Shown here in pieces: positions 9,231 to 25,229 of a DNA stretch of 25,229 nucleotides (within the stretch, counting starts at the first letter, position 1; each line of letters starts with the position of its first letter). Source of the stretch: an uncultured Tepidisphaeraceae bacterium (GTDB taxonomy: Bacteria; Planctomycetota; Phycisphaerae; Tepidisphaerales; Tepidisphaeraceae); NCBI GenBank assembly GCA_964433485.1, contig CAYSSA010000002.1, positions 6,661-31,889 of the forward strand, written 5' to 3'. A model generated the notes under the pieces. The model saw only the letters and a list, made by a program, of their open reading frames with translations, did not search any database and was not told the DNA's origin. The position numbers and the translations under genes were made by a program.

Positions 9231-9237
9231 ACAGACC

Positions 9238-9533
9238 TCCTCGAAAAAGAGGATTTGTTGCGGCAACCGGCTCCGAGCCACACCGGCCCAGCGTTTTTTT
9301 CCCGGCCGCCGCTCTCGCAAGAGAGCTGGCGGCGGCCGGGAAAGAACCCCCGGCGGCACCCCGTGGAGGCGCCGGGAGCGAGCGGGGAGTGACGGGCTGA
9401 AGCGGAGCGCCGCCTGCGTAATCGCCGAAGGCCAGTCATCGGCGGCGCGCAGCGCTCGGCACGACAAGAGCGAGCGACCAAGCCGGAGCGGGGTGTCGCC
9501 GGGCGGCTCACACCGCGGCGAAGCCGCCGTGAG
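9238..9533. promoter_or_regulatory. Structured non-coding leader upstream of parB
   Basis: Main hairpin 9298-9343: 13 bp + 6 bp, 4-nt bulge, GCAA loop. Further stems: 9349-9355/9370-9376, 9423-9428/9439-9444, 9453-9457/9468-9472, and 9507-9533 with a GCGAAGC core. Stem 9238-9242/9249-9253 covers the SD. Confidence 0.5.
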
Positions 9534-9549
9534 GCTGGAAACTCGATGA

Positions 9550-11019
9550 TCAGATGTAATAGCGGAATTGTGGTAACGGTTCTCGATCCTGCCCCGTCGG
9601 CATTTCTCGCATGATGTCGCCGACCAATCGCGAGAAGCGTAGTGTAATAGGCATCAACCCGGCGAAGGATGCCGAGTTCCAGTTCATCTTGGTGAGCGTG
9701 AGAATCTCTTGAAGCAACGCCTCAATGGAGCTGTCGCCAAAATGGTCGGCGACTTGGAGCGGCGAGGGCACATGGCCGTGTGGGTAAGCCTTGAGCGCCG
9801 GGATGAACCCGGTTGTGTACAGATAGTGCGTGTCGCCAACCTGAAAACTCGTGCCCCGGAGCGGTGGATATTGCCCCGCGCGGAGCAGTCGGGCCTGGCT
9901 GGTTGGACTGACCGCAAGCAGGTCGAATTGCTGCACCTGTTTCAGGGCGGCCTCAAAGCCCTTCTTCTCATCCGGCCAGAAGCGAGAGGATTTGTGAATC
10001 ACAACGCGGGTGGGCTTCTGGCGCATCTCTGCTTCGTAACGGCGGAGCACCAGAGCAATCAGGTCGTTCGCCATTGACTCGCTCAAGTGGGGTGAGTTCC
10101 CGTGCTTGTCCTCGTCCCAGAGGAAATCCTGACCCCTGAGGACAATTCCGTCGCCGTGTTCGTCGAACGCCTGCGCAACGCTGCTGCGCATCTGCTGGGA
10201 CTTGGAGCCAAGGGAGCGAAAGAAGCTGATCCCGATGTAACATGTGCCGGGCCGCAACTGGCGAGGTGACCATGGAATACCGCCGCACTTGAAATACATC
10301 CCCGTAAAGAAGTTCCACGCGCACTTGGATCGGTGATCGACCTTCTTTGAGTCGGGGGCCGCCTCAGAAGTCCGCTGGAGAAGGATCTGCGTGGGCAGGC
10401 GGTACTTCATCGCCTCGGCCTTGAGTGCTCGGCGAAAATCACGATGCACCGACCCGAGAACGGGATCGGTGTAATCCACCGTCTTGCAATCCTCAAGAAG
10501 CGAATCAGGCAGGGCAAGAACGACGTATGTGGGCGGATTGTCTCGCTCCGACAGGAGGCGCAACTTTTGGGAAACCAGGTCCAGTGCTGCGGTGAAGCGA
10601 TCCCGAAGCAGCCTTGGCTGCTCTACCCCCGTCAAATCATGCGTGGTCAGGACTTCATTCAGGCTTGGGTCCACCATCAGATCAGAGAAAAATCCACGGT
10701 CGCTCTTGAAGCCCGGAAAGTCGGGATGATCGGAGTTGCCCTTGGCGCCTTCCGCACATGAGGTGATCCAGTTACGGGAAGACTCGATGCTCTCGCCTGT
10801 TCCGATGAAGCCCAAGCGAATGGTCAAGGGGTGGCGGGGAAGGTCGAGGGATCGCGGGCCGAAAATCGCGATTCCCGTTTGGGGGCTCACATGTTCACGC
10901 CCGCCGCAGAAACCCAAGGGAGGCTCAGATAGGTACTGGGCCTTCAGTACCGGCGCGGTGATGTCGATACGGCGGATCGGCTTTGAGGTGGCGTGATGCA
11001 AGTGTTTATGCTTCTTCAT
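9550..11019 (-). CDS. Short prokaryotic Argonaute (MID-PIWI only, 489 aa, catalytically inactive)
   Basis: Start at ATG 11019 (GAGGAGG RBS). LSEPPLGF...GIAIFGP N-terminus; MID motif FRRALKAEAM...PTQIL...YFKCGGIPW (R-K type); PIWI CYIGISFF, VVIHKSSRF, LTKMNWN, PITLRFS. GIS and HKSS replace the catalytic Asp positions. No N or PAZ domains. Confidence 0.95.
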   Translation of the reverse strand: MKKHKHLHHATSKPIRRIDITAPVLKAQYLSEPPLGFCGGREHVSPQTGIAIFGPRSLDLPRHPLTIRLGFIGTGESIESSRNWITSCAEGAKGNSDHPDFPGFKSDRGFFSDLMVDPSLNEVLTTHDLTGVEQPRLLRDRFTAALDLVSQKLRLLSERDNPPTYVVLALPDSLLEDCKTVDYTDPVLGSVHRDFRRALKAEAMKYRLPTQILLQRTSEAAPDSKKVDHRSKCAWNFFTGMYFKCGGIPWSPRQLRPGTCYIGISFFRSLGSKSQQMRSSVAQAFDEHGDGIVLRGQDFLWDEDKHGNSPHLSESMANDLIALVLRRYEAEMRQKPTRVVIHKSSRFWPDEKKGFEAALKQVQQFDLLAVSPTSQARLLRAGQYPPLRGTSFQVGDTHYLYTTGFIPALKAYPHGHVPSPLQVADHFGDSSIEALLQEILTLTKMNWNSASFAGLMPITLRFSRLVGDIMREMPTGQDREPLPQFRYYI

Positions 11020-12310
11020 CGTCGCCCTCCTCTTCCGGTTCCAGGTCGGTGAGGTCTCCAGCTTCCTCCTTGATGGCATCAAGTTCGGCCAGGGTGAACA
11101 GATCCTCCTCATAGGAGATGTGGGTGAACGACTTGGCATCGTTGGGAACTCCAGGCCAAGAAAGCGTAGTGTTGAGGAGTTCCGTACTGATGGTCAAGTG
11201 CTGACCGCCGCCATAATCGAAGACGATACGCGGCGTGCCGTTGGAGAGGAAATCCCGCCAAAAATTCACCTCCGTCAGCACGTTGGCGTTGTACATGTGC
11301 GACTTGCGGCTGGTTACGCGGCGACCTGTCCCCTTGGGCGTGATCGCCTTGAAGCCATCGAAGGTGAATCGACGTTCCGGACGAATGGAAAGACACCACT
11401 GCCCATCCGCCACGCGATGGAAAGCCAGCCCCACGGCCATGTGCTCCCAATATTTCTTTACTTCCCCCGTGTGTTTGAAGAACGGGTTCCACGCCACCTT
11501 TCGGGAGACCTGTTTGCCGGTCAAAGACGTGTAGACTACCGACAGATCCTGGCCGGGCTTCGCAGGTTCAAAATAGTACCGGCTGTGCTCCTTGTCGAGT
11601 TGGAGTCGCATGCGGCCCGTGAGCTTATTGAGGGAGCGGTTGAGCAACTGCACATACCACCGGGCGCGGTCGGGGTCATCCCACCACCGTACGGCGGGGA
11701 TTGGCCGGGCTTGGCTAAGGTTGGTTACGTCTCGGAAGGGGCTCTGGCTAGAGGTAAGGTTGTCGAATGTGTACAGCTCTCGGTCGCGGACAATGTAGGG
11801 GAGCATGACTTTGGGATTGTCCGGGGCGTGGAGTTTTGCACGAACGTCTGGCTCCTCCACGGTGCATGAGACAGCGAAGATGGTCATTGGGACATGTGTG
11901 ACCGGCAGCAACGTGCTGTGGACGGTATCTGTAACTTGGGCCTCGGGTTGGCTGGTGTGGAGAAACAATTGCCGGGGCGTCAACTGCTGTTGCACCCAGC
12001 GTTCGTGGTCCAGCTTCATCTGAACAAGCTTCTCAACCGTGTAGGTCTGAGGCTGTCGATCCACGATCTCGTGGTGAGCATGGCAGAGCAGGAGCAGGTT
12101 ATCGTAGCCATCCAACTCCCCGCCGGGTGGCTGCTGAGTGCTGCGTGGCCCTCCGGGGCTCTGTGCCACGATGTGCGCGATTTCCCCCAGCGTCACCGAT
12201 GGATCATTTTCGTTGGCGGAAACTACCAGTCCGCGGCGGCAATCCGGAAACGAACATGTGGCGCCAGATTTGCCCCACAGAATCTGTTTGATCCGGTCGG
12301 TGATTGCCAT
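11006..12310 (-). CDS. HNH endonuclease-APAZ fusion, partner of the short pAgo
   Basis: N-terminal HNH: LWGKSGATCSFPDC...GEIAHIV...GPR...DNLLLLCHAHHEIVD. The rest is APAZ-like (STLLPV, YVQLLNRSL, RYYF, LSIRPERRFTFDG, YNANVLTEVNFWRDFL) with an acidic tail. Overlaps the pAgo start by 14 nt. Confidence 0.88.
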   Translation of the reverse strand: MAITDRIKQILWGKSGATCSFPDCRRGLVVSANENDPSVTLGEIAHIVAQSPGGPRSTQQPPGGELDGYDNLLLLCHAHHEIVDRQPQTYTVEKLVQMKLDHERWVQQQLTPRQLFLHTSQPEAQVTDTVHSTLLPVTHVPMTIFAVSCTVEEPDVRAKLHAPDNPKVMLPYIVRDRELYTFDNLTSSQSPFRDVTNLSQARPIPAVRWWDDPDRARWYVQLLNRSLNKLTGRMRLQLDKEHSRYYFEPAKPGQDLSVVYTSLTGKQVSRKVAWNPFFKHTGEVKKYWEHMAVGLAFHRVADGQWCLSIRPERRFTFDGFKAITPKGTGRRVTSRKSHMYNANVLTEVNFWRDFLSNGTPRIVFDYGGGQHLTISTELLNTTLSWPGVPNDAKSFTHISYEEDLFTLAELDAIKEEAGDLTDLEPEEEGDDEEA

Positions 12311-12320
12311 CGTGCCTCCC

Positions 12321-15300
12321 TCAAGTCAGCTTGAAGTCTGCGTCCACGTCCTTCAGCAGAGCGTTGATGTCACTTACGACGGAGGCGGGCGGGGGTGTCT
12401 TTCCGTCGCCGACCTCCAGGCGGACATGGAACTTCATGGCGACCTTCGCCTTTGCCTTGACTTCCAATAGCGCCGGGATGAGGTCCCCCAAGTCTTGAAC
12501 CTGCGACGGCTCAAAATCCGCCGCGGCGCTCCTGACATTGGGCGGCGCAGAACCTCCACCAGGTCCGCCGCCCGCGCCGCCCCCAGTTCCGCCGCCGGCG
12601 CCTGCGGTGGCGAGCTTGATCTTCACCGTCTGGGCGGCGGGTAGGTCGGATGGCCAAGGGGCAGAGTCGTCAGTCAAGGCAATGAACCTCGCCTGTAATG
12701 ATCCGCCGATCACGTCGCGCACGGTCTTCCACGGCAGCGTGTTGCCTGCCTGCTGAGATAGCGCGGTGGCGATGGCCAGGGCGGTTGTATTGCCGTCCTT
12801 CCACGCGGCGGACAAGTTCTCCGGCAGGATTGCGGCGGCCGAAATCGGTGGCGGCGGCGTGCGCAGTTTGGCGCTGGGGGACAGTACCCCGGCGGGGATC
12901 GGTTCAGCCAAAAGGCTGGCAGGCCCGGACAACAGCCACACCTTGCCGGCGGCGACGGCTTCACCGATGGCGGCGTTGACTACGTCGGCGGACGCCTTGG
13001 GAATTGGCATTGGTTCCTGGAAGCCGCCCTTATCCACCTGTACGACGGTCTTGCCGCCGAAATAATCGAGCGCCGCCTGGGCGGTAAGCTCGTCGCCGGC
13101 CCACAGCGATGGCAGCGCTTTGGGCGCAAGTAATTCCGGAGAAATGTCGGCCAGTTCCGCCGCTTCGGGCAGAACTAGCTCCAGCGCCGGGTCGGCCAGC
13201 GCCGCATCGTCCGGCTGCGAACGCCACCAGGTCCGGAATGTACGGTCCGGTCGTTGGAGCTTGAGAACGAACGTCCCCTGAACGCAGCCACCGACGAGCG
13301 TTTCGACAATTGCCTGCGCCTTGAGCATCTTGGGAAGGTGCGGCAGTTGTGCGAAGGCACCCGCCAGATCCTTCACGCGGCGGCTGGTTTCGCCGCCTTT
13401 CCACAGGTTGTACGGGCCATCTGGCAATAGGGCTTCGGCGGTAATGGCTGTGTCCTGGACGCGGGAACGGCTGTCATTCTTGATGGTGTCAAAGTGCGCA
13501 TCTTCGCCGACGGTGATCTTGAATGCCTGGACCTCGTCCTTGTCCGAAACCGTCACGACGATGCAATAGGCTTGGCGAATGGCCTCCGGCACGCGAGCCT
13601 TGGCCTTGTCGATGTTGATCTTGAGGGTCTGCAAGCGAGCGACATCCACGGAGCCCTTCTGCTTCTTCTCCTCCTCGTTCTTCGGCGTCAGGTCGTTCAT
13701 GACCCGCTCCCACGCAAGGAAATCGCGCATGCGGGCTTCGGCTGCACTCAGGCCGTCCTTTGAGGCAGCCAGGAGCAGGACCGCGTTGCGGAAGACGCGC
13801 GGCTTTTCCGGGCCGGTCGTCTCATCCAGGAATCGCTTGGCTTCCGGGCTGGGTTTGCCGGAATCCGACGATGCGCTTGGTGACATGATGGCGTAGTGGA
13901 ACAGTCCATCGTCCTCAATGTCCCTCGCCTTGGTCGGAAGCGTGTGGACGCGGACACCGGCCGCCGAGGCGCCGCTGGTCAGCGTCTTGGCCTTGCCAAT
14001 CTCATCGACCAACCTCGCCCGGACCAACTCGTCGGTGATGTTCGCCGCGGCGGCGGACTGCATCTGAATCAGGTTCGGGCGATTGCCCAACCGCCATTCA
14101 GCGGGCAGTTGCCCTTCCTTCTCGGGCATATTGGTGTCGTCAAGCCAGTGGCTATTACGCGCCCACCGGGCCAGGCCCTTCTCAAGCTCGATTTTGTCCG
14201 GGCGGCACGGACCGATGAGCATCAAGAGGTCCCGGGTCTTGGCGCTGCGTCCGGTGGGCTGGGAATGCAGGAAGGTGGCCATGGCGGCCTGCTCAATCTC
14301 GCGCAGCTTCAGACCGACGGCTTCCGACTGTACGCGGCGAGCGCTTTCCAATTCGTTCTCCACAATGCCCGTCCAGCGCGTAGCCTGGCCGTCGCCAACG
14401 ATGGTGTCGGCAATCGAGACGAGCTCGCGGGCAGCCTCGGAAAGCCCAGCCTGTTTCGGCGAGCTGAGGAACACAGACGCGCCCACCAGAGGGCTATCGT
14501 CCCATTTCTCGGCCTCGCGTAGCGCCAACGCGAACGTGCGCAGCACGCCGCGGGTCTTCTGGAATCGCTCGATCCCTGCTGCCCACTTGGAGTAGAACAC
14601 GTCCGTCAATTCGGGGTGGAAGGGGTAGCTCTTGAGGTATCGCTCCTCCGCCGTTGCACCCTGCTTGGCCGTCTGGTCGTCCAGAGCGGCGATGCCCTTG
14701 AGGGCCGCGATGACGTGCTGCGGCCAGGTACCGCGCAACTCCACCGATTTGGGATCGAACAGCCGGCGGCGGAGCACCTCGGCCACGTCATCCTTCTCAA
14801 CAGGCTGCACGGCCTCCTCTCGCTGGCGCTGGAAGATATCGTACAGACCCGACACGATCTTCTTGCCCAGCGGATCGGCCTGGTCTTTTGGTTCGCTGGA
14901 CAGCAGCGACGCCACGATGCAGCACCGCTGAACCTTGGCCGCCGCCTGAGTCAGGTACTGGAAGAATCCAACGAGCACGTCCAGGAAGCCGGGCTCCAAG
15001 TGACATCGCACCTTGGCGTACAACAGCACCTCGTCGAGAAGAATCAGAATCCCCAGCCCGGATTTAAGGGGGAGCGACAACAACTCGGTTAGCGTGTTTT
15101 CGGCCGGGGGCGTGTTGCGTTCCTCGGCTTTCCCCTCAGCGTTCAACAGCTTGAGACCTTGATCGCCCGCGAGCTGGTAGGCCAGCAGGCTCCACGGCTG
15201 CTTGAGCCGGCGCACGGCGCCATCGGGGCCGCGCACGTCGCAACCCGTCTCAACGTCCAGTTTGTCAAAGCAGAGCGCGGCGACGCGAGCTTTCGGGGGC

Positions 15301-15674
15301 GCCTGGCCAATGGTCTCGGTGAACTCGCGTACAGCGGGCAGGTCCGGCAGGTTGTCCGGGTCATGCACCAGGTGACGCATCGTGATGAGCGTGTGCGTCT
15401 TGCCGCCGCCGTACGTCAATTCGAGCTGCCGGACGGCTTTGTCGTTCTTGCCGGCCAGACGCAGAACCACGTCACGCACCAAATTGCGCAGGTTGTGCGT
15501 GGGGAACGTCAGGGCGAAGAATTCCTCCGGCTTCTCATACAGCGGCCGCATGCCGTTCTGCATCATGACTTCGTACAGATCGGCCGCGAACATGTGCAGC
15601 GGCAGGTCGCCGCTGCGCAGGTCGCTGCGGAGTTGGACAACCTCGTGCCACGGTTTCCAGGATAACTTAGCCAT
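12321..15674 (-). CDS. DUF499-family AAA+ ATPase
   Basis: KPWHEVVQLRSDL...FAADL...PEEFFALTFPT N-terminus; Walker A LTYGGGKTHT; Walker B LILLDEV; SYPFHPEL; FQKTRGVLR; Gly-rich linker near the C-terminus. Confidence 0.92.
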   Translation of the reverse strand: MAKLSWKPWHEVVQLRSDLRSGDLPLHMFAADLYEVMMQNGMRPLYEKPEEFFALTFPTHNLRNLVRDVVLRLAGKNDKAVRQLELTYGGGKTHTLITMRHLVHDPDNLPDLPAVREFTETIGQAPPKARVAALCFDKLDVETGCDVRGPDGAVRRLKQPWSLLAYQLAGDQGLKLLNAEGKAEERNTPPAENTLTELLSLPLKSGLGILILLDEVLLYAKVRCHLEPGFLDVLVGFFQYLTQAAAKVQRCCIVASLLSSEPKDQADPLGKKIVSGLYDIFQRQREEAVQPVEKDDVAEVLRRRLFDPKSVELRGTWPQHVIAALKGIAALDDQTAKQGATAEERYLKSYPFHPELTDVFYSKWAAGIERFQKTRGVLRTFALALREAEKWDDSPLVGASVFLSSPKQAGLSEAARELVSIADTIVGDGQATRWTGIVENELESARRVQSEAVGLKLREIEQAAMATFLHSQPTGRSAKTRDLLMLIGPCRPDKIELEKGLARWARNSHWLDDTNMPEKEGQLPAEWRLGNRPNLIQMQSAAAANITDELVRARLVDEIGKAKTLTSGASAAGVRVHTLPTKARDIEDDGLFHYAIMSPSASSDSGKPSPEAKRFLDETTGPEKPRVFRNAVLLLAASKDGLSAAEARMRDFLAWERVMNDLTPKNEEEKKQKGSVDVARLQTLKINIDKAKARVPEAIRQAYCIVVTVSDKDEVQAFKITVGEDAHFDTIKNDSRSRVQDTAITAEALLPDGPYNLWKGGETSRRVKDLAGAFAQLPHLPKMLKAQAIVETLVGGCVQGTFVLKLQRPDRTFRTWWRSQPDDAALADPALELVLPEAAELADISPELLAPKALPSLWAGDELTAQAALDYFGGKTVVQVDKGGFQEPMPIPKASADVVNAAIGEAVAAGKVWLLSGPASLLAEPIPAGVLSPSAKLRTPPPPISAAAILPENLSAAWKDGNTTALAIATALSQQAGNTLPWKTVRDVIGGSLQARFIALTDDSAPWPSDLPAAQTVKIKLATAGAGGGTGGGAGGGPGGGSAPPNVRSAAADFEPSQVQDLGDLIPALLEVKAKAKVAMKFHVRLEVGDGKTPPPASVVSDINALLKDVDADFKLT

Positions 15675-16917
15675 GTGATCGTCCTTTCGTCGCCGCCCGC
15701 GTTTCCAGGGCGTGCTGGGTCGCCAAGATTTCCTGGCGCAGAGTCTCGGGATCGGGAAGTTGGGTGAGGTATTTGGACGCGAACACCTGGGCGCGAATCC
15801 CGCCCATCGCGTACTTCACCACCGCGTCCTCTTTGTCGCTGCACAGAATGATGCCGATCGGGTCGTTCTCGCCGGCCATCGTCAAATGTTCTTTAACGTA
15901 GGTGAGGTACAGGCTCATCTGCCCGGCGTCGGCATGGTTGAACGACCCTCGCTTCAGGTCGAGCACCACCAGGCAGCGCAGCACGCGGTGGTACAGCAGC
16001 AGGTCGATGCGATACCACTGGCTGCCCACGCGAATCCGCTTCTGCCGCGCCACAAAGGTGAACCCGGCCCCCAGTTCCAGCAGAAACCATTCTAGGTGCC
16101 GAATGAGCGCATCCTCCAGTTCGCTCTCGCTGTACTCGTCCTTGAGATCGAGGAACTCCAGCAGGTACGGGTCGCGCACCTCATCCTGGGCCGACACTGC
16201 ATCCTCCGGCCGCGCAATCTGTCCGCGGGCCAGCATGGCGGCTTGCTGTTTGGAATGCGACGTGCGCTCAAAAAACTGTGTGCCAATCTGCCGGTCCAAC
16301 TGCCGCACCGACCAGCCTCCGCGGATCGCCTCGCTCTCATAAAAGACGCGGGCGTGCGGCTTCTCCACCGCCATCAATCGCACGTAATGCGACCAGGACA
16401 GTGGGAACGCGCCGGCAATCGCCATAAAGCCGGATTCGGCGGACACCGTCTGCAACATTCTCGACGGTGTCGAGACAATGATACCGCCTGATTCCGCCGA
16501 CGGTGTCGGCAGAATACCACCCCCGGATTCGCTCGACAGCGCCGAGCATTTTGCCCTCGCCTCGAATTGTCTCGACGGTGTCGAGACAATTTCCCATGCG
16601 AGATAGAACGCCCGCATCCGTGCCACGTTCGGCCTGGAGAACCCTCTCCCGTGCCTCGTTGTCAGGTCTGCCGAAAGGCGTTCCAGCAGCTTCTCCCCGT
16701 ACTCGGATGTTGCCTTCCCGCCTTGTTCATGCTCCACGATCCGCCGGCCGATTTCCCAATAGGTCGCGGTCAGGATCGCGTTGACCGACCGGGCAACACC
16801 TCGGCGAGCCTGCTCCAGCAAGCCGGATATGCCGGTGAGCAACTGGCCATAGTCGCCGGCCCGCGCGACGATGCTCGTCGTAACAGGCCGCTTCTTCTTG
16901 GACGTGCTTCGTCTCAT
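15667..16917 (-). CDS. yhcG: YhcG/DUF1016-family PD-(D/E)XK nuclease
   Basis: TATYWEIGRRIVEHEQGG, GRGFSRPN, LSWSHY, WSVRQLDRQI, RDPYLLEFL, LLELGAGFTFVARQKR, IDLLLYHR, VVLDLK, DAGQMSLY, PIGIILC. ATGA overlap with the methylase stop. Confidence 0.93.
   Translation of the reverse strand: MRRSTSKKKRPVTTSIVARAGDYGQLLTGISGLLEQARRGVARSVNAILTATYWEIGRRIVEHEQGGKATSEYGEKLLERLSADLTTRHGRGFSRPNVARMRAFYLAWEIVSTPSRQFEARAKCSALSSESGGGILPTPSAESGGIIVSTPSRMLQTVSAESGFMAIAGAFPLSWSHYVRLMAVEKPHARVFYESEAIRGGWSVRQLDRQIGTQFFERTSHSKQQAAMLARGQIARPEDAVSAQDEVRDPYLLEFLDLKDEYSESELEDALIRHLEWFLLELGAGFTFVARQKRIRVGSQWYRIDLLLYHRVLRCLVVLDLKRGSFNHADAGQMSLYLTYVKEHLTMAGENDPIGIILCSDKEDAVVKYAMGGIRAQVFASKYLTQLPDPETLRQEILATQHALETRAATKGRSHG
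16432..16591 (-). repeat. Five ~25-27 nt palindromic units with a GAC-NNN-GTC core, in frame within yhcG
   Basis: Units at about 16565-16591 (perfect 12-bp inverted repeat), 16527-16551, 16491-16515, 16456-16480 and 16432-16455. They encode IVSTPSRQF, KCSALSSES, ILPTPSAES, IVSTPSRM and MLQTVSAES. Confidence 0.85.
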
Positions 16918-19900
16918 GCTTCACCCGCTTCTGGTATGCCCGGCAGCATCGGCCCCTGTTCCTTGACAGCGCCCTTGGCGCCGATGTGATTGCTGATGCT
17001 CTCCAGCAGCGAACGCTCGCTGTTGGTGGACAGTTCGATGAGGGACTGCACGACGCGCTTGAACAACTCGTTCCGCCGCAGTGCATGCTGATCAAGGTAT
17101 CCATCGACCTTCTGCACATCGCCTTCTTTCCACAAGTGCATCACACGGTGGATGCGGTCGATTAGCGGCACGGCCTTGCCGGCTGGGGCTTCGTAGCCAA
17201 TGCTCTTGCCACGTCGCTGGTTCCACGCTTTTAGCTTCACCTTTCCGCCGCCACCGGCATCGCCTTCATCCGCGTCAGCATCGACGTCGTCGTCACCTTC
17301 GGTATCGGCGGCATCAACATCGGCATCGGCGGCATCTTCATCAGCGCCGGCGTGCGCGATGATCTCCCATGTACGATCGAGATCGCTGTCGGTGAGGCCA
17401 CAGGCGGTAGCGTAGAGGATGCACGCGCCCGCTGGCGCATCATCCATTCCGAAGTCATGGCGGTGCAGCAGGTAATAGGCTGTCACCTCATCCAAACGGT
17501 CGGCGGCGGCCAAGTCGGAGCCTTTCTCGCCGGTCAGCACCTGGCCGACGACATAGTCCACCACCATTCGCCGGACGTGGTTGAGAAATTCGCCGACGGT
17601 CATCGTGGCGTTGGGCTCGTTGGCCTTCCGCACGACGGGGTGTTTACTGTATGCCTCCAACGCCGGCCCGGTGGCCGCCCAGACGAAGTCCGGGCCACGT
17701 ATCCCCGCGTCCCAATACTCTCGCAGGCGATCCGCAATGTTGGCCTTCATCTCCTGCAGGACAGTATTGTCCCAGCCTGGGCGAGCCGTGGCCGGACGTT
17801 TTCTGCAAACGAGCCACACGGACGAGGCGAGAGCCGCGGAACCCAAGGAGCGAACGCGATTGCCCATTTCGGTCTGAATGGGCCACGACCCGTCCACTGT
17901 GAATCCAGCACGGATGATCGCCGAAACGAGCGTTTCCCAGGCATTCGGTTGCTTATTGGCGAAGACGATTACGAGGCGACCTTCGGGCTTTAGAGCTTGC
18001 GCACACGCAACGAATGCGCGGGCCATGCCATCTTCATATGCCTGCTTGCTCTTAGTGCCGTCCATCCCATGACGGCTGCAATCATCGATCAATTCACCGT
18101 CGTTGGCTTCGTGGTTCCACTTCGGTGAAAGAGGCGAGTTGAACGCAGTGTCGATAGCGGGTGACGCGCCTTGCAAAGACCTGCGTAACCACACATAGAA
18201 GAAGTCCATCAAGTCAGAGTATGGAATGGCATCGTAGTACGGCGGGTCGGTTAGGATGATGTCCAGCCCGTCGGACAAAGCTTGCGTGGCACTGCCGGAT
18301 TTCACGCATGGTGCGGGCTGTCGCTCGATAGCGGCGAGCGTCCGAGAAATGAATAGCGCAATCCATTCGATGGCGCCCAGATAACCACCGGACGTTTCGG
18401 AGGCAACTCCGACTTCAGTGAAGTCCCACACCATCGGCAAGGCGAACCTGCCGAAGGTATTCCGCATCTTCTCGCCACTATTATGCCAAGTACAAACGGC
18501 TGACCCGTAGTCTGCAAGGCGATCAGCGGCGATAGCCAGATACGCCTCAACGGCCTCGATCCATTCCGGCGGGTAACTATTGGCGGCAAGGACTTTGCCC
18601 GTTTGCCGTGTAGCCGACACCACGGTGCCCAAAGCTGTGAGTTGTCGGGCAGTAAATAGCTTTCGCCATCTGTCAAATCCGTATAGCGGCACGCGCATCC
18701 CGAGTGCGTCCTCGCTGGGCATTGGCTCCTCCGGGATGCCGAACGGCACATTGGCAAATGCCTGCTCAATCCGCTCCTGATCTGGCGTGGCGACCGCTAG
18801 CTCGAACTCGGTTGGTAGGCGGTATTCCTTCCCATCGGGGCCGTCCACGACGACGGCTGTCATGACACTGCCCAAACGGTTCGCCCGGCCTTCAGTGCGC
18901 ATATCCTCCATTGTCATGATGGCTGGGCAGCAAGGGCACTTGGCGCCGGCGCGGCTCATGGTGCCGGCGGCGATGCGTTTGTCGTGCTCGCGGCGCTGGG
19001 CCGCATTGCCGCCCTGGACAGGGACATTGGCCTGGATGCCGAACACGACCCGCTTGGTGCCCGACGGGTTGGGCACGACGGCTGCTGACGCCGATGATGC
19101 GAAATGGGCCGCCACCTTGGCGCGGACGGCTTCCGCCGTCTGCTCCATGTGTGGATCGATATCGCGCGCCTCCATCGTCAGCAGTACGCGCTTGCGGTCC
19201 TTCTTGCACAGCCACCGGGTCTTGAGCAGCGGTATTTGCGAGCGGCAATTTTTGCACGTGACCGTCCGCGCCCACAGATAGGCGACGGTCGGCTTGGCCA
19301 CCCATCGCGGGTTACGCCTGTCGGCAACGTAATCCTCTGTGAACTCGCCGTTCAACGAGTTGATGTCGGCGGTGCCATCGTCGGTCAGCGGAACCAGGCG
19401 CATGGGTTGGCGCTCATAGGCGACATGGTCTTTCTTTAGCGGTTCAAAATCGGCATAGGTGGGGTAAAGGCCGGCAAGTTCGCGGCGGGCATGGTCCAGC
19501 ACCCACTGGCCCCAGCCACGGATATGCCAAGCCAGATCGGCGTCGATGGCCATGTCGCCGCCGGCGATGTCGAGGCTCATCTGCTCCCCGTGTTCCAGCT
19601 TGTGGCCGAGTTGCTCCAGTCGCTTCTTCACTTGCGCTTTACTCAGGCCATGCGCTTTGAAGAAGGACTCCATGAACGTCTTATTGTTCAGGATGAACTT
19701 CGGCAGCGACCGCTTCTGCCCGGCCAACTTCTGCGGATACTCCAACGTGCATTTGAGGATGAACCACGCGACGGGGTTAATATCGACAGCCGTGGCCTCG
19801 CAACCCAGGCGCATCGCCTCAAACGGAATTGCGCCGCCGCCGGCGAACGGATCGAGCACCTTGGGGGCGCGGCCGCCGTAGGCTTTGCGAATTTCCTGAC

Positions 19901-20255
19901 GGAACCATTCGAGCGTGTCGGCGTTCTCGACTTCGCGACCCCAGTGAAGGATGCCGCCCTCGGTCTCCTCCTTGATCCGGTCTACGACCTGTCCGTTGGG
20001 CATCTTCTTCTTTTCGATCCGCTTGACGACCTTGCCGCCGATCTTCTCGCATAGTTCGCGGCGTTTCTCCGGATCGCCCGGGTCGGGAAGCAGCGTGGCG
20101 ATGAGCGCTGCCCGGCAAGCCGCCAGCGGCCGCCGCGCCGGCCAGATGTGAAGTGTCGAAATATGCCCGTGGCGGACTGCCTTCTCGTGGACAGAATCCA
20201 GCGAAGTCTGTTTCAGCGGGAATGCGTGTTCGATGAGTCGGGAAAAGTCAGTCAT
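16914..20255 (-). CDS. DUF1156-family DNA amino-methyltransferase (probably N6-adenine)
   Basis: DUF1156 signature GHISTLHIWPARRPLAACRA; motif I VLDPFAGGGAIP; motif IV ILTDPPYYD; CKNC and CPCC Zn-ribbon pairs; WPIQTE. Confidence 0.93.
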   Translation of the reverse strand: MTDFSRLIEHAFPLKQTSLDSVHEKAVRHGHISTLHIWPARRPLAACRAALIATLLPDPGDPEKRRELCEKIGGKVVKRIEKKKMPNGQVVDRIKEETEGGILHWGREVENADTLEWFRQEIRKAYGGRAPKVLDPFAGGGAIPFEAMRLGCEATAVDINPVAWFILKCTLEYPQKLAGQKRSLPKFILNNKTFMESFFKAHGLSKAQVKKRLEQLGHKLEHGEQMSLDIAGGDMAIDADLAWHIRGWGQWVLDHARRELAGLYPTYADFEPLKKDHVAYERQPMRLVPLTDDGTADINSLNGEFTEDYVADRRNPRWVAKPTVAYLWARTVTCKNCRSQIPLLKTRWLCKKDRKRVLLTMEARDIDPHMEQTAEAVRAKVAAHFASSASAAVVPNPSGTKRVVFGIQANVPVQGGNAAQRREHDKRIAAGTMSRAGAKCPCCPAIMTMEDMRTEGRANRLGSVMTAVVVDGPDGKEYRLPTEFELAVATPDQERIEQAFANVPFGIPEEPMPSEDALGMRVPLYGFDRWRKLFTARQLTALGTVVSATRQTGKVLAANSYPPEWIEAVEAYLAIAADRLADYGSAVCTWHNSGEKMRNTFGRFALPMVWDFTEVGVASETSGGYLGAIEWIALFISRTLAAIERQPAPCVKSGSATQALSDGLDIILTDPPYYDAIPYSDLMDFFYVWLRRSLQGASPAIDTAFNSPLSPKWNHEANDGELIDDCSRHGMDGTKSKQAYEDGMARAFVACAQALKPEGRLVIVFANKQPNAWETLVSAIIRAGFTVDGSWPIQTEMGNRVRSLGSAALASSVWLVCRKRPATARPGWDNTVLQEMKANIADRLREYWDAGIRGPDFVWAATGPALEAYSKHPVVRKANEPNATMTVGEFLNHVRRMVVDYVVGQVLTGEKGSDLAAADRLDEVTAYYLLHRHDFGMDDAPAGACILYATACGLTDSDLDRTWEIIAHAGADEDAADADVDAADTEGDDDVDADADEGDAGGGGKVKLKAWNQRRGKSIGYEAPAGKAVPLIDRIHRVMHLWKEGDVQKVDGYLDQHALRRNELFKRVVQSLIELSTNSERSLLESISNHIGAKGAVKEQGPMLPGIPEAGEA

Positions 20256-20260
20256 TTACG

Positions 20261-21190
20261 TCATCCTTGAGCGAGGGCAATCTCGCCAAAACTCCAAGAG
20301 CGACCGCCCTTCGTGCCGATTAGCAGGGGATTTTGCGGCGGAGCGATCGTCAACTTCACGTGCCCTTGTTTGCGTGTCGTGATCATCTTGTAATCCGCGT
20401 CGCCGACCTTGATGCCACGAACCGGATCCTGGCAGTATCGCGAGTCAACGTGAGGGTCTTTGGACACAACGGAGACCAAGACGACCGCGGGCTTGGCGAG
20501 GTTCAGGAGGTCAACGGAGTAGGCGGAGGCATGACCATGGTGAGGGGCCACCAAAATGTCGATTCCGGTCACGAACGGCCGCCAGGCGGCGCCGTATTGG
20601 CCAGTGTCCGCAATGATGGCTTCCCACGCCTCTTTTTCCAAATCGCCGCATAGGAGGATTGAGTTGCCATGCACGTCGATGCGAGTAACGACGCTGGCGT
20701 TGTTCACGCGACTGTTCGCTTGGCCGCCGACCTGCCTCGCCACCGTCACGGGCAAAGCCAATTCACGAATCACTACGCCGCCATAGTCTGGATAGCCGGT
20801 GGTCGTGAATGTACCCGCGAAGTGCGAAGCGAAGGCGTGTACTTCAGGCCACGAGTCATCGGTACTCGTTGAGCGGCAGTCCTCCAGGTACTCCTGGTCG
20901 AAATCGACGGTCTTGAGGAAATCCGGTCCGTACTCGAAGAGACGAGCATGGTCGGCCAGGTGATCACAATGCAGGTGACTGATGGTGCCCTTGAGAAACC
21001 TGAAGGGAGTGCGGATCATCAACTGCGCGTACGGCGAGGCCGATGCCGGCGTCTCGCGGCGTGCAATCCACTGGATCGGTGAAAACGTGGATGTGCAGCC
21101 TGCATCGAAGAGACACCAGCGGCCATTAGGCAAGCGCAGGCCAGCGCATTGCCCATGATCGACATTGAAGAGGAAGAATTCGGTATTCAC
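20261..21190 (-). CDS. ComEC/Rec2-type metallo-beta-lactamase-fold hydrolase (MBL-2, 309 aa)
   Basis: Start reassigned to GTG 21190 (GGAGG RBS; GTGA overlap with the upstream stop). Motifs: FNVDHGQC, FDAG, SHLHCDH, NNASVV, LLCGDLE, APHHG, VSV, TTRKQGHV. No signal peptide. Confidence 0.88.
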   Translation of the reverse strand: MNTEFFLFNVDHGQCAGLRLPNGRWCLFDAGCTSTFSPIQWIARRETPASASPYAQLMIRTPFRFLKGTISHLHCDHLADHARLFEYGPDFLKTVDFDQEYLEDCRSTSTDDSWPEVHAFASHFAGTFTTTGYPDYGGVVIRELALPVTVARQVGGQANSRVNNASVVTRIDVHGNSILLCGDLEKEAWEAIIADTGQYGAAWRPFVTGIDILVAPHHGHASAYSVDLLNLAKPAVVLVSVVSKDPHVDSRYCQDPVRGIKVGDADYKMITTRKQGHVKLTIAPPQNPLLIGTKGGRSWSFGEIALAQG

Positions 21191-21846
21191 GCCGGCCTCC
21201 CGTTGTTGGCAGCGGCCGGCAGCTGCAGGTACTGAACGAACACCTCGCGTGCATAGCGAACGGCAAACCGGTGCATGCGATAGATGGCGAGCGAAATGAG
21301 CACGGCGAGGATTACCTCCACCTTCCACGCCCGCCAATGCATGATTGCCGATGCAACCAGAAGCACAATCAAGCCGGCTGCAATGCCGCGGCAGAGTCCG
21401 TAGTTGCCATTGAAAATGTCAACGCGGTTGTTCTGCTTTGCCGCTTCCACGGCGGCGTAAACCTGCCGGGTGATTGCGTACCACTGCTTGGCAGTGGCGT
21501 TAGACAGAGCAAATGCTGGGTCGCTCACGCTCAAACGGACACGCCCTTCGAGCATCGTGCGCTGTGACGGAGCAATTATTTCGTGTTTGCCGCTGCGAAC
21601 CCAGTCCGTCGGCATCCCGCCCCAGAACCACCACCAGCCCGTCTCGACTGCATTGCCGATTGCTTGAAGAAGCTGCCCGGCAACATAGGCGAGAATCAAA
21701 CCGACGCCAAGGCTTCCAAGGGAAACACTGGAAATGGCGACCAGATCTTTGCTGTGGTCGGGGAAGAACAAGAGTACCAGGCCGACGATGAACACCATGC
21801 CTGGCGCGATGACGCCCGCCGTTCCGTAGAAATCGAACTCTTTCAT
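21187..21846 (-). CDS. Uncharacterised 4-TM membrane protein (219 aa; alternative TTG start at 21885)
   Basis: Hydrophobic segments: AGVIAPGMVFIVGLVLLFF, LGSLGVGLILAYVAGQLL, GIAAGLIVLLVASAIM, VEVILAVLISLAIY. Soluble middle loop; GAGG RBS before ATG 21846. Confidence 0.8.
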   Translation of the reverse strand: MKEFDFYGTAGVIAPGMVFIVGLVLLFFPDHSKDLVAISSVSLGSLGVGLILAYVAGQLLQAIGNAVETGWWWFWGGMPTDWVRSGKHEIIAPSQRTMLEGRVRLSVSDPAFALSNATAKQWYAITRQVYAAVEAAKQNNRVDIFNGNYGLCRGIAAGLIVLLVASAIMHWRAWKVEVILAVLISLAIYRMHRFAVRYAREVFVQYLQLPAAANNGRPA

Positions 21847-21881
21847 AACCGTACCTCGCTTCCATAGCCGCGTCATGTACC

Positions 21882-22838
21882 TCAACGGTCATACTGGGAA
21901 CGAATCGTCGGCTTTGCCGCGGCGTCATACGTGATCTCGATGTTTCCCTTCCAGCGGGTGGACCATACGTTCTCCGAGTGCTTCCGGTACTTGTCGGATG
22001 CGTCTGTTTCGGGTTTCTTGCCCACGGATACGATGGTGTATTGCGGCTTCATCAACTCGACGGCCCTATCGTGATAACCGGAATCACGGCCGTGGTGACT
22101 CGCCTTCAGGACTGTGCACTTCAATCCTGATCCGTACCGTTTCACGAGATCATCCCACACCACTTCTTCCGCATCACCGGCCAGGACGATTTTCACGCCG
22201 CCAAGGGTTACGCGCAGCACATAGCTCAGGTCGTTGACGTTGTCCGAATCTTGAATTGCCCGGAGGGTGGCGGGATTGGGGTGAAGGATGTCGATCCCGT
22301 CACCACCATCGACGCCGTCGGGGTCCTGATTCCAGAATGTGCCTTTGTCGCCACAGTATTTCCGAAGCACTTTGGGGGAGCCGTTGGGCGACCCGCGGAG
22401 CCGCTTGTACTCGTTCCACGATTTCCGGTCGGCATCGCTTGTGAGATCAGGAATGAATGTGTGGTCCGTGTCCCAGAAGTTCACAATGTCAATGTTGTGC
22501 GCCTTGAGTTGCTCAATGCCACTCAAATGGTCAAGGTGAGGATGCGTTTGAACATAGCGGAAGATGTCCTTGCCTGGGTAGTTCTTGCTGAGGAATTCAA
22601 TCGGGTTTGTCAGCTCGATGTCATAGCCGGCCTCCTTGACCATGCCGTAGCTGCGCTGGCCAAGAGCTTCGGCAAGCATCAATCGCATGTTGCCCTGTCG
22701 ATAATACTGACTGACTTCCGCGAGGGATTCGTGGTCTAACTCGGTGCAGTTGTTCACGTCAACGACCGTCAGTCGGCCGCTGGCGTGTTCGATAACGGTG
22801 CAGTCGCCATGCCCGACATTTAAGAAGGTAATCTTCAC
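21882..22838 (-). CDS. ComEC/Rec2-type metallo-beta-lactamase-fold hydrolase (MBL-1, 318 aa)
   Basis: Motifs: FLNVGHGDC, THPHLDH, NDLSYV, LAGDAE, KASHHG, VSVG, STRWKGNI. GTG start overlaps the helicase stop (GTGA), with a GAGGAGG RBS. Confidence 0.9.
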   Translation of the reverse strand: MKITFLNVGHGDCTVIEHASGRLTVVDVNNCTELDHESLAEVSQYYRQGNMRLMLAEALGQRSYGMVKEAGYDIELTNPIEFLSKNYPGKDIFRYVQTHPHLDHLSGIEQLKAHNIDIVNFWDTDHTFIPDLTSDADRKSWNEYKRLRGSPNGSPKVLRKYCGDKGTFWNQDPDGVDGGDGIDILHPNPATLRAIQDSDNVNDLSYVLRVTLGGVKIVLAGDAEEVVWDDLVKRYGSGLKCTVLKASHHGRDSGYHDRAVELMKPQYTIVSVGKKPETDASDKYRKHSENVWSTRWKGNIEITYDAAAKPTIRSQYDR

Positions 22839-25229
22839 AGCGACTCCTCCTCAGCCACTTGGGCGATTTGGGCCGCCGATATCGCAACGCCACCGACCGT
22901 TATGGTCGAACGGATGGTCCGCTCATTGGTCTGCTGCTTGGAGAATGGTCGCACCAGCAGCTTTTGAAATGGGTCTTGCACGCGGACCATCGTGGGCGTA
23001 GGCGTGGCACATTGATAAACGACGTAAAGCCAGTAGCCGTCCCGGAGATTGCAGGCCCTGGCCCATTCGTTGTCGGAGATTTGAATCTCCCCGGTCGTCG
23101 CGCGGCCTTTGACCTCGATGGCACGAGTTTCTCGTAGCGTGCCCTCACGGGGAGGCCGAAGCGAGAGCAGGTCGAATCCGGGATTGTCGGTTAGGCCGGC
23201 GGCGCGGGCTAGCTCGGGAGTGTGGACATCCTGCACAATAGCGCCGGCGGCTTCCTCGTATGCGCGAGCAAGATCCATCGCAACTCGTTCAACGTCGGCG
23301 TCGTGCTGCTCCAGATCGTCGGGATTGGTCGATGGCACGACAAGAGCGTGCGCCAGGAACGTCAGGTGTCCGGGGGCAATCAACTCCGGCTCTCGATGGA
23401 GTGTTGCCACTGCCATGGCGCGGCGTTGGGCGAGGGAACGTTGCTGGTCCTTGATCTCCTTCAGCGCCTTGAGTGCCGCGGAGTTTCCGGACCGGGACTT
23501 TTCCGATTGCTTCACCCGGGCTGCGGCAAGCTCAGCTTCCTGGAAGTCAAAGCCACGCTGGACGAACTGCTCGCGCTCTGGGAGTGTGGCCAGAAGCGCA
23601 GTTCGTCGTTCCATCGCCATCGTGCGGGCGACGCGCTCGACCATGAACGCCTGGGCCTGGGCCTTGAGCTTCTCGGCGGACATGGCAATGCGCTGCGCCG
23701 CCGGCGGGAGGCCATGGCCGCCTCTGAGCAGCAGCAGGTGTTCGACCGGGCAGAGAGCAAGTTCGACACCCTCGCGCTGCTTAACACCAACAAGCGTGCA
23801 ATCGAGAATCTCCTCGCTGGCCAGATCGGGAAGCTCGGGGTCGGCTTGGCGGACGACGCTGACCAGGGCAAGGTGAAAAAGGTACGGCTTGTCGGTGGTC
23901 GGATCGACGAACACGGCACCGCGAAGGGCCTGGTCGCCCAGACGGTCGCTCACGACGGCGCGGAAACGCTCGAAAACAGGCTCTCCCGGGTGGACCCAGA
24001 TGCGGGCGTCCTTCTCCGTGGGCAGCGGCCGCACAACGGAGAGGCATCCGCGCTGGCGGGCCGGATACATTTCGAGCGTGTGGAGGAGGAGGTCAATAGC
24101 GCCCTTCGAGGCCGGCCGCATGGAGAAGCAGGCATCCATGTCGCCATCAAGCTCGATATCCACGAGCGGTGCGGCGTTTTCGACGTAGTTCCTGACATAG
24201 CCCGGCAGCAGACGGCAATATGCCTCCTGCTGGAGGTCTTCACGCAGCCGTGGGAGTTGGCGCTTCACGTCGCCCCCGTCGCCGTAGAGCATGCGCTCCT
24301 GCGCAGCCAGTGCCTCCACCTGCTCCTTGGTGAGGCGGCCGTCCAATTCGCTGGCGACGGAACCGGCGCCGTCCACCAAAGCCTGCTCCATGTAGGTCTT
24401 GAGGGAGACGCCCTCAAAGAGACGGCCGATGGAGTCGAAGACCTTTTCGCTGCCCAGACTGTCGCGGATGGTATCGAGCTTGTTTAGAAGCGTCTGGATG
24501 ACCAAACCCTCGCGGGTCTTGGGCGCGACGAGGTTGACGATCTGCACAGGGTCGTGCTTCTGGCCATAACGGTGAATGCGTCCCATCCGCTGCTCAAGGC
24601 GGGCAGGATTCCAGGGGATGTCGAAGTTCACCATGATCCAGCAGAACTGGAGGTTGATGCCTTCGGCAGCGGCGTCGGTGCAGATCATGAAGCGGGCGCC
24701 GCCGTCTTCGTGGGGCAGGCGGAATCGTTCGACCTGTTCCTGGCGCTCGGTGTAGAACATGCCGCCATGAATCTGCGCGATCTGCCCTGTGTATCCCATG
24801 CCCCCCAGTCGCTGGATGAGATAGGTGAGCGTGTCACGGTGCTCGGTGAACACGATGAATTTCTCACCGGCGAAGCGCTCGTCGGTCAAAACTTCCCGCA
24901 ACTTGTCGAACTTTGATTCGGCGCCCTGGTCGAAAACCTTCTGCGCCAGGTTGCGAAGGCCAACCACCTGCTCGCGCTCGACGACAAGATCGGTCAGCGA
25001 AGCAGCGATGACGCCGGCGAGCAGGCGATCCTCGGACACTTCGCCTTCCTCAAGTCCATCTTCGGGCGATTCTTCGTCGGCTGTCTTCGTATCGAGAACA
25101 TCATCCTCCTCGGCCAGACGGCGCTGGAGAATGACAAGCTGTTCCTCGGTGAGTTTGCCTTCCTGGACTTGCCGGATCAGGTCGTCGAGTTTGCCGATCC
25201 GGCGCTCGAATGATCGCAGCAGCGCGAAC
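22835..25229 (-). CDS. SF2/SNF2-type helicase with C-terminal DUF3883 (NOV-C-like) nuclease domain, 5'-truncated
   Basis: The frame is open to the window end (FALLRSFERRIGKLDDL... precedes the ORF-track start at 25039). Helicase motifs IV-VI: FIVFTEHRDT, TDAAAEGINLQ, DIPWNPARLEQRMGRIHRYGQ. C-terminal PGFDLLS...IEVKG...SDNEW...YWLYVV. Confidence 0.92.
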   Translation of the reverse strand, partial: FALLRSFERRIGKLDDLIRQVQEGKLTEEQLVILQRRLAEEDDVLDTKTADEESPEDGLEEGEVSEDRLLAGVIAASLTDLVVEREQVVGLRNLAQKVFDQGAESKFDKLREVLTDERFAGEKFIVFTEHRDTLTYLIQRLGGMGYTGQIAQIHGGMFYTERQEQVERFRLPHEDGGARFMICTDAAAEGINLQFCWIMVNFDIPWNPARLEQRMGRIHRYGQKHDPVQIVNLVAPKTREGLVIQTLLNKLDTIRDSLGSEKVFDSIGRLFEGVSLKTYMEQALVDGAGSVASELDGRLTKEQVEALAAQERMLYGDGGDVKRQLPRLREDLQQEAYCRLLPGYVRNYVENAAPLVDIELDGDMDACFSMRPASKGAIDLLLHTLEMYPARQRGCLSVVRPLPTEKDARIWVHPGEPVFERFRAVVSDRLGDQALRGAVFVDPTTDKPYLFHLALVSVVRQADPELPDLASEEILDCTLVGVKQREGVELALCPVEHLLLLRGGHGLPPAAQRIAMSAEKLKAQAQAFMVERVARTMAMERRTALLATLPEREQFVQRGFDFQEAELAAARVKQSEKSRSGNSAALKALKEIKDQQRSLAQRRAMAVATLHREPELIAPGHLTFLAHALVVPSTNPDDLEQHDADVERVAMDLARAYEEAAGAIVQDVHTPELARAAGLTDNPGFDLLSLRPPREGTLRETRAIEVKGRATTGEIQISDNEWARACNLRDGYWLYVVYQCATPTPTMVRVQDPFQKLLVRPFSKQQTNERTIRSTITVGGVAISAAQIAQVAEEESL

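Follow-up and report, generated by a model that had tools for sequence, protein, structure and literature searches.

Perfect inverted repeats within protein-coding sequence have been described in mitochondrial genes, where translation runs through the two arms and the protein adapts to the symmetry; these long coding repeats reach up to 284 bp, are lineage-specific, and are scattered over many genes, in conserved protein regions. Shorter hairpin palindromes of variable copy number, sometimes located in reading frames, are known as REP/BIME elements and as REPINs with their RAYT transposases, and the palindromic elements of Rickettsia insert in frame. With regard to mechanism, template switching perfects short inverted repeats and yields multi-base compensated changes and loop inversions (PMC5941160; PMC8794818), and the repeats kept in this way have strict Watson-Crick arms that stay perfect. 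Here, we analyze a cluster of palindromes within a yhcG-type gene on a stretch of 25,229 nucleotides from an uncultured Tepidisphaeraceae bacterium (contig CAYSSA010000002.1, positions 6,661 to 31,889), which we call the window. The cluster consists of local copies of an old and nearly universal DNA palindrome of YhcG/DUF1016 genes, across bacteria and archaea, whose two arms evolve in concert at the DNA level. In the literature that we searched, no paper connects yhcG or DUF1016 to a palindrome or hairpin, and we found no functional study of the family.

The gene encodes a DUF1016_N domain, followed by the palindrome-bearing linker and then by a YhcG_C nuclease domain of the PD-(D/E)XK type. 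Five palindromes with 3-nt loops lie on the coding (minus) strand of the linker, all in the same codon register, with the loop formed by the third base of a Thr (or Ala) codon and two bases of the next codon. The gene and the five units, each read on the coding strand, are as follows:

15667..16917, minus strand: yhcG-type gene of 416 aa, from the open reading frame and its translation
16565..16591, minus strand: unit 1, the primary copy; 12/12 perfect arms, loop ACC; peptide I-V-S-T-P-S-R-Q-F (aa 110-118)
16527..16551 (core 16531-16547), minus strand: unit 2, degenerate; 6 Watson-Crick pairs and one G.T in 7, loop GCT; peptide K-C-S-A-L-S-S-E-S
16491..16515, minus strand: unit 3; 11-bp arms with 10/11 pairs and one T.G, loop ACC; peptide I-L-P-T-P-S-A-E-S
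16455..16479 (core 16459-16475), minus strand: unit 4; 7/7 pairs, loop ACC
16434..16458 (core 16439-16453), minus strand: unit 5; 5/6 inner pairs and one A.C, loop GGT, the reverse complement of ACC; peptide L-Q-T-V-S-A-E-S

A first-pass annotation made from the sequence had already pointed to these five in-register palindromes. All of them are present with 3-nt loops, although unit 2 (GCTCGGC-GCT-GTCGAGC), which it presented as complete, has one G.T; the compensation that it noted between arms (TCGAC/GTCGA versus CCGAC/GTCGG) was borne out. At the place of unit 2, one homologue (L008) has a better copy, with 7 perfect pairs, or 11 when one mismatch is allowed. Unit 4 shares 21 identical nucleotides with unit 1 (one direct-repeat family, 100% identity) and is thus a duplicate or a conversion product of it.

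A chance origin of the cluster is excluded. Perfect 3-nt-loop palindromes with arms of at least 12 number only 10 in the whole 4.4-Mb genome, unit 1 among them, and the genome rate for arms of at least 6, around 4e-4 per position, predicts around 0.065 such sites in 160 nt, where 3 are seen. A motif search of the window gave 5 matches against 0.77 expected, of which 3 are in the linker and the other 2 are 3-mismatch matches elsewhere. When folded as single-stranded DNA, the 176-nt stretch reaches -43.8 kcal/mol, compared with -30.4 +/- 3.1 in shuffles (z = -4.4). Elsewhere in the same genome, two contigs (C26:9600 and C189:7480) carry an identical perfect palindrome with 13-bp arms, gaacccccgcgaa AGG ttcgcgggggttc, possibly a terminator present more than once or a small family of repeats.

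The same element recurs throughout the family. Our sample, drawn from many phyla, comprised 80 loci from genomes and 80 from metagenomes, and about 150 homologues yield the consensus ATT-nnn-C[A/C/G]GAC-RSY-GTC[T/G]G-nnn-AAT, usually with 11-12 perfect pairs, in which the nnn triplets differ from gene to gene yet are mirrored across the arms. The units lie in the linker before the W-S-H-Y (W-[ST]-H) motif, in a fixed codon register and with the loop starting at the third codon base; unit 1 of the window fits this family pattern at 12/12, and the remaining units are degenerate and share the register. Even in subfamilies at around 30% identity there is a 3-nt-loop palindrome in the same register, with entirely different stems. 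For instance, the genome of the window has two more DUF1016 paralogues (contigs C302 and C213; 53% and 30% identical), each with its own palindrome at this register, the distant one having a different stem (ctcgcacc ACT ggtgcgag). In E. coli K-12, yhcG contains three units, one of them with perfect 15-bp arms.

The motif is almost restricted to these genes. In the genome of the window, its matches are confined to the yhcG paralogues, and in five complete genomes, every good match falls in yhcG loci or in remnants beside them, with 0 matches to a reversed control pattern. There is one exception, a 5-kb region of a Latescibacterota genome that contains, along with a truncated yhcG, a scrap of linker with two units and a loose perfect unit with 11-bp arms, which has no reading frame and is located 28 nt upstream of a gene for a winged-helix (HTH_24) regulator. 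Thus, the palindrome element can outlive the yhcG gene. The loose units and scraps are found at:

L196:1501-1525, L203:1430-1525, and L199:1501-1620, all in one Latescibacterota genome

Several observations show that the symmetry belongs to the nucleotides. In units resembling I-x-Q-T-x-S, the amino acids that precede Thr and follow Ser change together, as a palindrome at the nucleotide level would require: Q is matched by G/A, S by R/S, P by A/G, and E or A by R. Over 145 units, 88.3% of the cells are paired against 72% in shuffles, a percentage that is inflated because the units were partly picked by their pairing, and slid registers are 23-42% paired. Double-sided changes occupy 241 cells against 83 in shuffles, with 0/500 shuffles reaching the observed value, and all 11 pairs change on both sides. 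For a cleaner test, we defined units by their peptide alone, obtaining 212 distinct units; in 198 of them, the synonymous third base of the Ser codon complements the second base of the codon before Thr (chi-square p = 4e-37). Codon choice is equally marked: within units, ATT makes up 90% of the Ile codons, compared with 25% in the rest of the same genes; for TCT among Ser codons the figures are 83% and 11%, and for a final A in K/E/Q codons 94% and 42%, while the codon after Thr has G as its third base in 97% of units.

Two of the checks suggested by the first-pass annotation bear directly on this point. Its synonymous-shuffled controls lose the palindromes, as shuffling synonymous codons within genes lowers the number of sites with an arm of at least 7 from 1.30 to 0.027 per linker (48-fold). 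The nucleotide alignment of homologues shows symmetry that is kept while the peptide changes, arms that covary, and a copy number ranging from 0 to 7 units per gene, with a mode of 2.

Its proposal that units are gained and lost is supported by this range and by the yhcG alleles of E. coli (L105:9828-10955, L106, L107, L108, L109), with three units in K-12, two in another allele, and a single perfect unit in O157:H7, which differs from K-12 by 78 nt. Among the assembled public metagenome contigs that cover the window, we found no copy-number variants and no linker indel. In a relative around 95% identical, from a sediment metagenome, the unit-5 mismatch has become an A-T pair (16441 G>A) and one pair of unit 3 is broken. 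Among the nearest relatives of the window, unit 1 is perfect in three of four genes, and in the remaining gene three neighboring pairs are changed, each in both arms; a difference of this form, in the style of a one-step change, separates the window from the 77%-identical relative P0002. Per-unit perfection is 0.56 compared with around 0.33 in multi-unit genes, a difference that is confounded by how units were ascertained and that is suggestive of redundancy. Where two units adjoin, a further inverted repeat arises between them, made of the 3' arm of the first and the 5' arm of the second (for example, alignment rows L027:3307-3337 and L030:3472-3502); since neighboring arms also pair, arrays can fold in alternative registers. 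In E. coli, around a quarter of the genomes with a match have partial genes, and two truncations end inside the third palindrome, one at an IS1 junction at nt 385 and one at another transposase-linked junction at nt 406 (E. coli B); these junctions are anecdotal and possibly of clonal origin.

The symmetry is also the same on both strands. Over 140 units, the mismatches comprise 23 G.T and 42 A.C, so the tolerance of G.U on the sense strand that a folded transcript would show was not found, and the 74 units with exactly one mismatch contain 16 G.T, 29 A.C, and 29 transversions. The loops are of the form RSY (purine, C or G, pyrimidine) in 93% of 199 well-paired units, a class that is closed under reverse complement. 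Given the lack of G.U tolerance and this self-complementary loop class, the symmetry is of the DNA kind. A scan of the region against Rfam gave no match even at E = 10, and we found none of the marks of a structured RNA element, whether a known family, G.U tolerance, or a strand-specific loop. The first-pass annotation had spoken of selection on DNA/RNA symmetry rather than on peptide: the nucleotide level stands, through synonymous sites, shuffles, and homologues; the RNA side does not, in view of the mismatches and the RSY loops; and compensated arms do not require selection on pairing.

The cluster in the window is best explained as one intact and four decaying copies of a DNA-level inverted repeat. 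We give an even chance to a fuller account, in which the arms of this repeat evolve in concert, most likely by template switching during replication, and slippage places copies in a disordered linker, where the extra ones decay. Intrastrand template switching (quasi-palindrome correction) would keep the arms alike by copying one arm from the other in a single step, with the peptide dragged along, and units would multiply or vanish through slippage or recombination between them in a linker that tolerates such changes. The primary unit may be better kept because its two arms double as coding sequence for a piece of the folded N-terminal domain, a modeled beta-hairpin. Concerted mutation of this type makes compensated arms explicable without selection on pairing, and neither an operator nor an RNA role is required by the data. 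The features expected of template switching were found, namely strict Watson-Crick arms, mirrored multi-base changes, and persistence where there is no coding or RNA constraint. Loop inversion in units with identical arms is at chance level (9/16 pairs against 0.53 expected) and speaks neither for nor against it.

Several points nevertheless weigh against this explanation. No template-switch event was directly observed in the compared sequences. The T.G of unit 3 is shared with the 77%-identical relative, so the mismatch is old and has remained uncorrected, even though a synonymous G>A would mend it. Nearly all members, in bacteria and archaea, retain at least one unit, the arms have a defined length of 11-12 bp, and the A/T ends are kept in GC-rich genomes, all of which resemble selection more than drift. 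In 99% of units, the Thr codon at the loop ends in a purine (ACA or ACG), compared with 51% elsewhere, a preference that arm correction alone does not explain. Finally, in the clade of the window, the first unit is perfect in 58% of cases against 15% of later units (Fisher p = 1.5e-7, for sequences that are not independent). Such a bias is unexpected from a purely local mutational process and could be explained by protein-level constraint on the first unit; the difference is absent in genes outside the clade and is confounded by protein constraint and shared ancestry.

The modeled protein bears on both this explanation and its competitors. An AlphaFold run with 22 close sequences was unusable (pLDDT 42), and we used a run on a 73-sequence alignment instead, with a mean pLDDT of 83. 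Residues 132-134 and 139-158, which correspond to units 3-5, have pLDDT below 50 and are modeled as disordered. The residues encoded by unit 1 (aa 108-122; aa 106-123 correspond to window 16548-16601) are modeled as a beta-hairpin after two helices, with strands 108-112 and 118-122 and a block-mean pLDDT of 68-93, so that in the model the DNA hairpin appears to encode a protein beta-hairpin. This may be a real wing-like hairpin or, equally, a prediction artifact, because a DNA palindrome yields antiparallel covariation of amino acids. A fold search with the whole model matched only the nuclease domain, to NucS/EndoMS (probability 1.0), Can2, Bax1, and MspJI, and a sequence search of the PDB with the family profile returned nothing, so no relative with a solved structure was found by sequence.

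The assignment of the gene itself is clear. The protein matches PF17761 at E = 1e-39 (residues 30-218) and PF06250 at E = 4.8e-56 (residues 245-396), and its PADLOC match, PDC-S02 at E = 5e-129, also places it in the YhcG/DUF1016 family; a search of NCBIfam returned no name. As the PF17761 profile has 137 positions, its match leaves around 50 surplus residues ahead of the L-S-W-S-H-Y motif, and it is this insert that contains the five palindromes. The family is large, with 24,524 cluster representatives at E <= 0.001, and one close relative of 474 aa (P0065) carries an XRE-type helix-turn-helix domain fused at its N-terminus (residues 14-64).

In the window, yhcG is located between the HmaB and HmaC genes of an Hma system, identified with PADLOC through its HmaA helicase (E = 1.4e-69), HmaB DUF1156 methylase (E = 1.8e-119), and HmaC DUF499 ATPase (E = 2e-70). 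Its overlaps with the neighboring genes are 4 nt on the upstream (methylase) side and 8 nt on the downstream (DUF499) side. HmaA and two genes of the metallo-beta-lactamase fold (PADLOC PDC-M48B-like) are found further upstream, and yhcG is followed downstream by a nuclease-APAZ gene and one for a class I short pAgo, so the context given by the first-pass annotation, with DUF499 and pAgo genes after yhcG, was correct. The minus strand of 9550-25039 forms one tightly coupled operon that runs from HmaA to the short pAgo with yhcG inside it, and a ParB-like gene of 704 aa follows the operon at 7353-9467. Among the 80 homologue loci examined for it, an HmaB-like gene adjoins yhcG in 15.

Among the alternatives, a function of the palindrome as DNA in cis, possibly with YhcG binding its own site, fares best, and we consider it unlikely; if the site does have a function, a defense nuclease would here be coupled to its own gene in a new way. 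The simplest form, which was the main idea of the first-pass annotation, holds that the units are duplex sites for a symmetric dimer, most simply of the helical N-terminal domain of YhcG, and serve in autoregulation or as a transcriptional roadblock within the operon. A symmetric site of around 27 bp, in which the outer ATT/AAT and the inner GAC/GTC blocks are conserved and the RSY loops are symmetric on both strands, would suit such a dimer, and since the motif is almost confined to yhcG genes, site and gene travel together. The two helices and the beta-hairpin of the model resemble a winged helix (by our own reading, with no fold match), some relatives have the extra XRE helix-turn-helix domain, the nuclease fold is of the dimeric, NucS-like kind, and the gene lies between methylase and effector genes of a tightly coupled operon. 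However, triplets that are not contacted need no complementarity, yet the nnn triplets are complementary; the units of one gene differ from each other at positions 4-8; the stems are completely different between subfamilies; and our literature search yielded no functional study of any family member to draw upon. An operator would be expected near a promoter, with the same sequence at each site, and we found no copy near a promoter or between genes in the window and none in the genome outside the yhcG paralogues, the good copies all being in the coding linker. As far as sequence can tell, then, multiple operators or a roadblock go unsupported, since the units differ at the very positions that would be recognized, and we regard the duplex-site proposal as improbable.

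A broader version, in which the palindrome is a cis DNA site recognized by its own YhcG, either as a duplex by the winged-helix-like N-terminal domain of the model or as a hairpin by the NucS-like nuclease domain, seems to us distinctly doubtful. If it were true, the nuclease gene and its site would be one self-regulating or self-targeting module moving between defense operons, and the DNA hairpin would literally encode the beta-hairpin that reads it.

It is very unlikely that the units work in a folded state, whether extruded from the duplex as hairpins or cruciforms or formed in single-stranded DNA, and are substrates or targets of the PD-(D/E)XK nuclease that the gene encodes or of a recombination or transposition process, with gene and site forming a self-contained and possibly mobile module. 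Pairing at non-conserved positions is just what a hairpin requires, but strong negative supercoiling is necessary for a cruciform of 11 bp with a loop of 3 nt. The two independent IS-associated truncations of E. coli within the third palindrome (nt 385 and nt 406) would fit, but they are anecdotal, and the many nt-406 genomes may trace to a single ancestral event. The gene is also highly mobile across phyla, occurring on mobile elements and in phage records (PMC4316617), but we found neither target duplication nor defined element ends.

Action in the mRNA, for example by pausing translation between domains, by influencing processing or stability, or by binding the nascent protein, is very improbable, and an RNA role of the yhcG palindromes in general is unlikely. 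As part of the sense transcript, the hairpins would be stable, and position 12 is often G opposite C or U. However, as described above, G.U is not in excess over A.C either in all units or in those with a single mismatch, the closure of the loop class under reverse complement is not predicted for an RNA made from one strand, Rfam gave no match, and a perfect unit survives outside any reading frame.

Even less can be said for a small mobile palindromic element of the REP/REPIN or Rickettsia type inserted in frame, which we hold to be highly improbable. The units are similar to such elements in size, hairpin shape, and variable copy number, and loose copies lie beside a broken yhcG in one genome. 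Nonetheless, good matches are found only in or next to yhcG, both in the genome of the window and in the five complete genomes where the control pattern gave none; their position and codon register are fixed family-wide, including in members at around 30% identity; and no RAYT-type gene was seen in the window. A dispersed element of the REP/REPIN type is largely refuted, as we did not find the many dispersed intergenic copies that characterize it.

The last alternative, for which we see next to no chance, is that only a peptide repeat (I-x-Q-T-P-S-...) is selected, for instance for cross-strand pairs of a beta-hairpin, with DNA symmetry as a by-product: the Q-T-x-S motif is conserved and mirrored residues of the modeled unit 1 hairpin could covary at the protein level, but this explanation is refuted because purely synonymous positions and codon biases follow the pairing and synonymous shuffling abolishes the palindromes, and, in addition, distant subfamilies retain a palindrome with unrelated peptides and the modeled hairpin may itself be an artifact of palindrome-induced antiparallel covariation.

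These results imply that a very large family of nucleases, including that of E. coli K-12 and members found in operons of the restriction-modification type, in Hma systems, and in other defense operons, has a protein segment that is dictated by DNA symmetry. The YhcG palindrome is therefore a clean natural case for separating selection on nucleic-acid structure from concerted mutation, and one that is directly testable in E. coli K-12. There is also a practical warning, as the amino-acid covariation that the palindrome causes looks like that of antiparallel contacts, and structure prediction and coevolution analysis may be misled by it.

With regard to the known systems, the operators of controller (C) proteins and other helix-turn-helix regulators in restriction-modification operons are palindromic and located at promoters, with conserved contacted bases and with no need for complementarity at uncontacted positions. 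They resemble the yhcG units as symmetric sites in a defense operon that could time the expression of a nuclease, but the yhcG units are in the middle of a gene, are translated, and covary at every position. The attC sites of integrons, which are recognized as folded single-strand hairpins and need an integrase, share with our units the conservation of structure rather than of sequence; they differ in being imperfect, with extrahelical bases, and in lying at the 3' ends of cassettes, and neither these features nor an integrase are seen at the yhcG units. REP/BIME elements and REPINs exist as tens to hundreds of dispersed copies mobilized in trans, whereas the YhcG unit stays within yhcG genes or what is left of them. 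The repeats treated in the two template-switching studies are non-coding repeats of E. coli, without mention of yhcG (Lavi et al. 2018, PMC5941160), and those of RNA genes (Monttinen and Loytynoja 2022, PMC8794818); they share multi-base compensated changes with our units, and neither study describes a family-specific element that is in frame. Finally, in contrast to the long, lineage-specific repeats scattered over mitochondrial genes, the yhcG unit is around 27 bp long, occupies one fixed codon position in a single family across bacteria and archaea, and is present in variable copies, with a peptide that follows the DNA.

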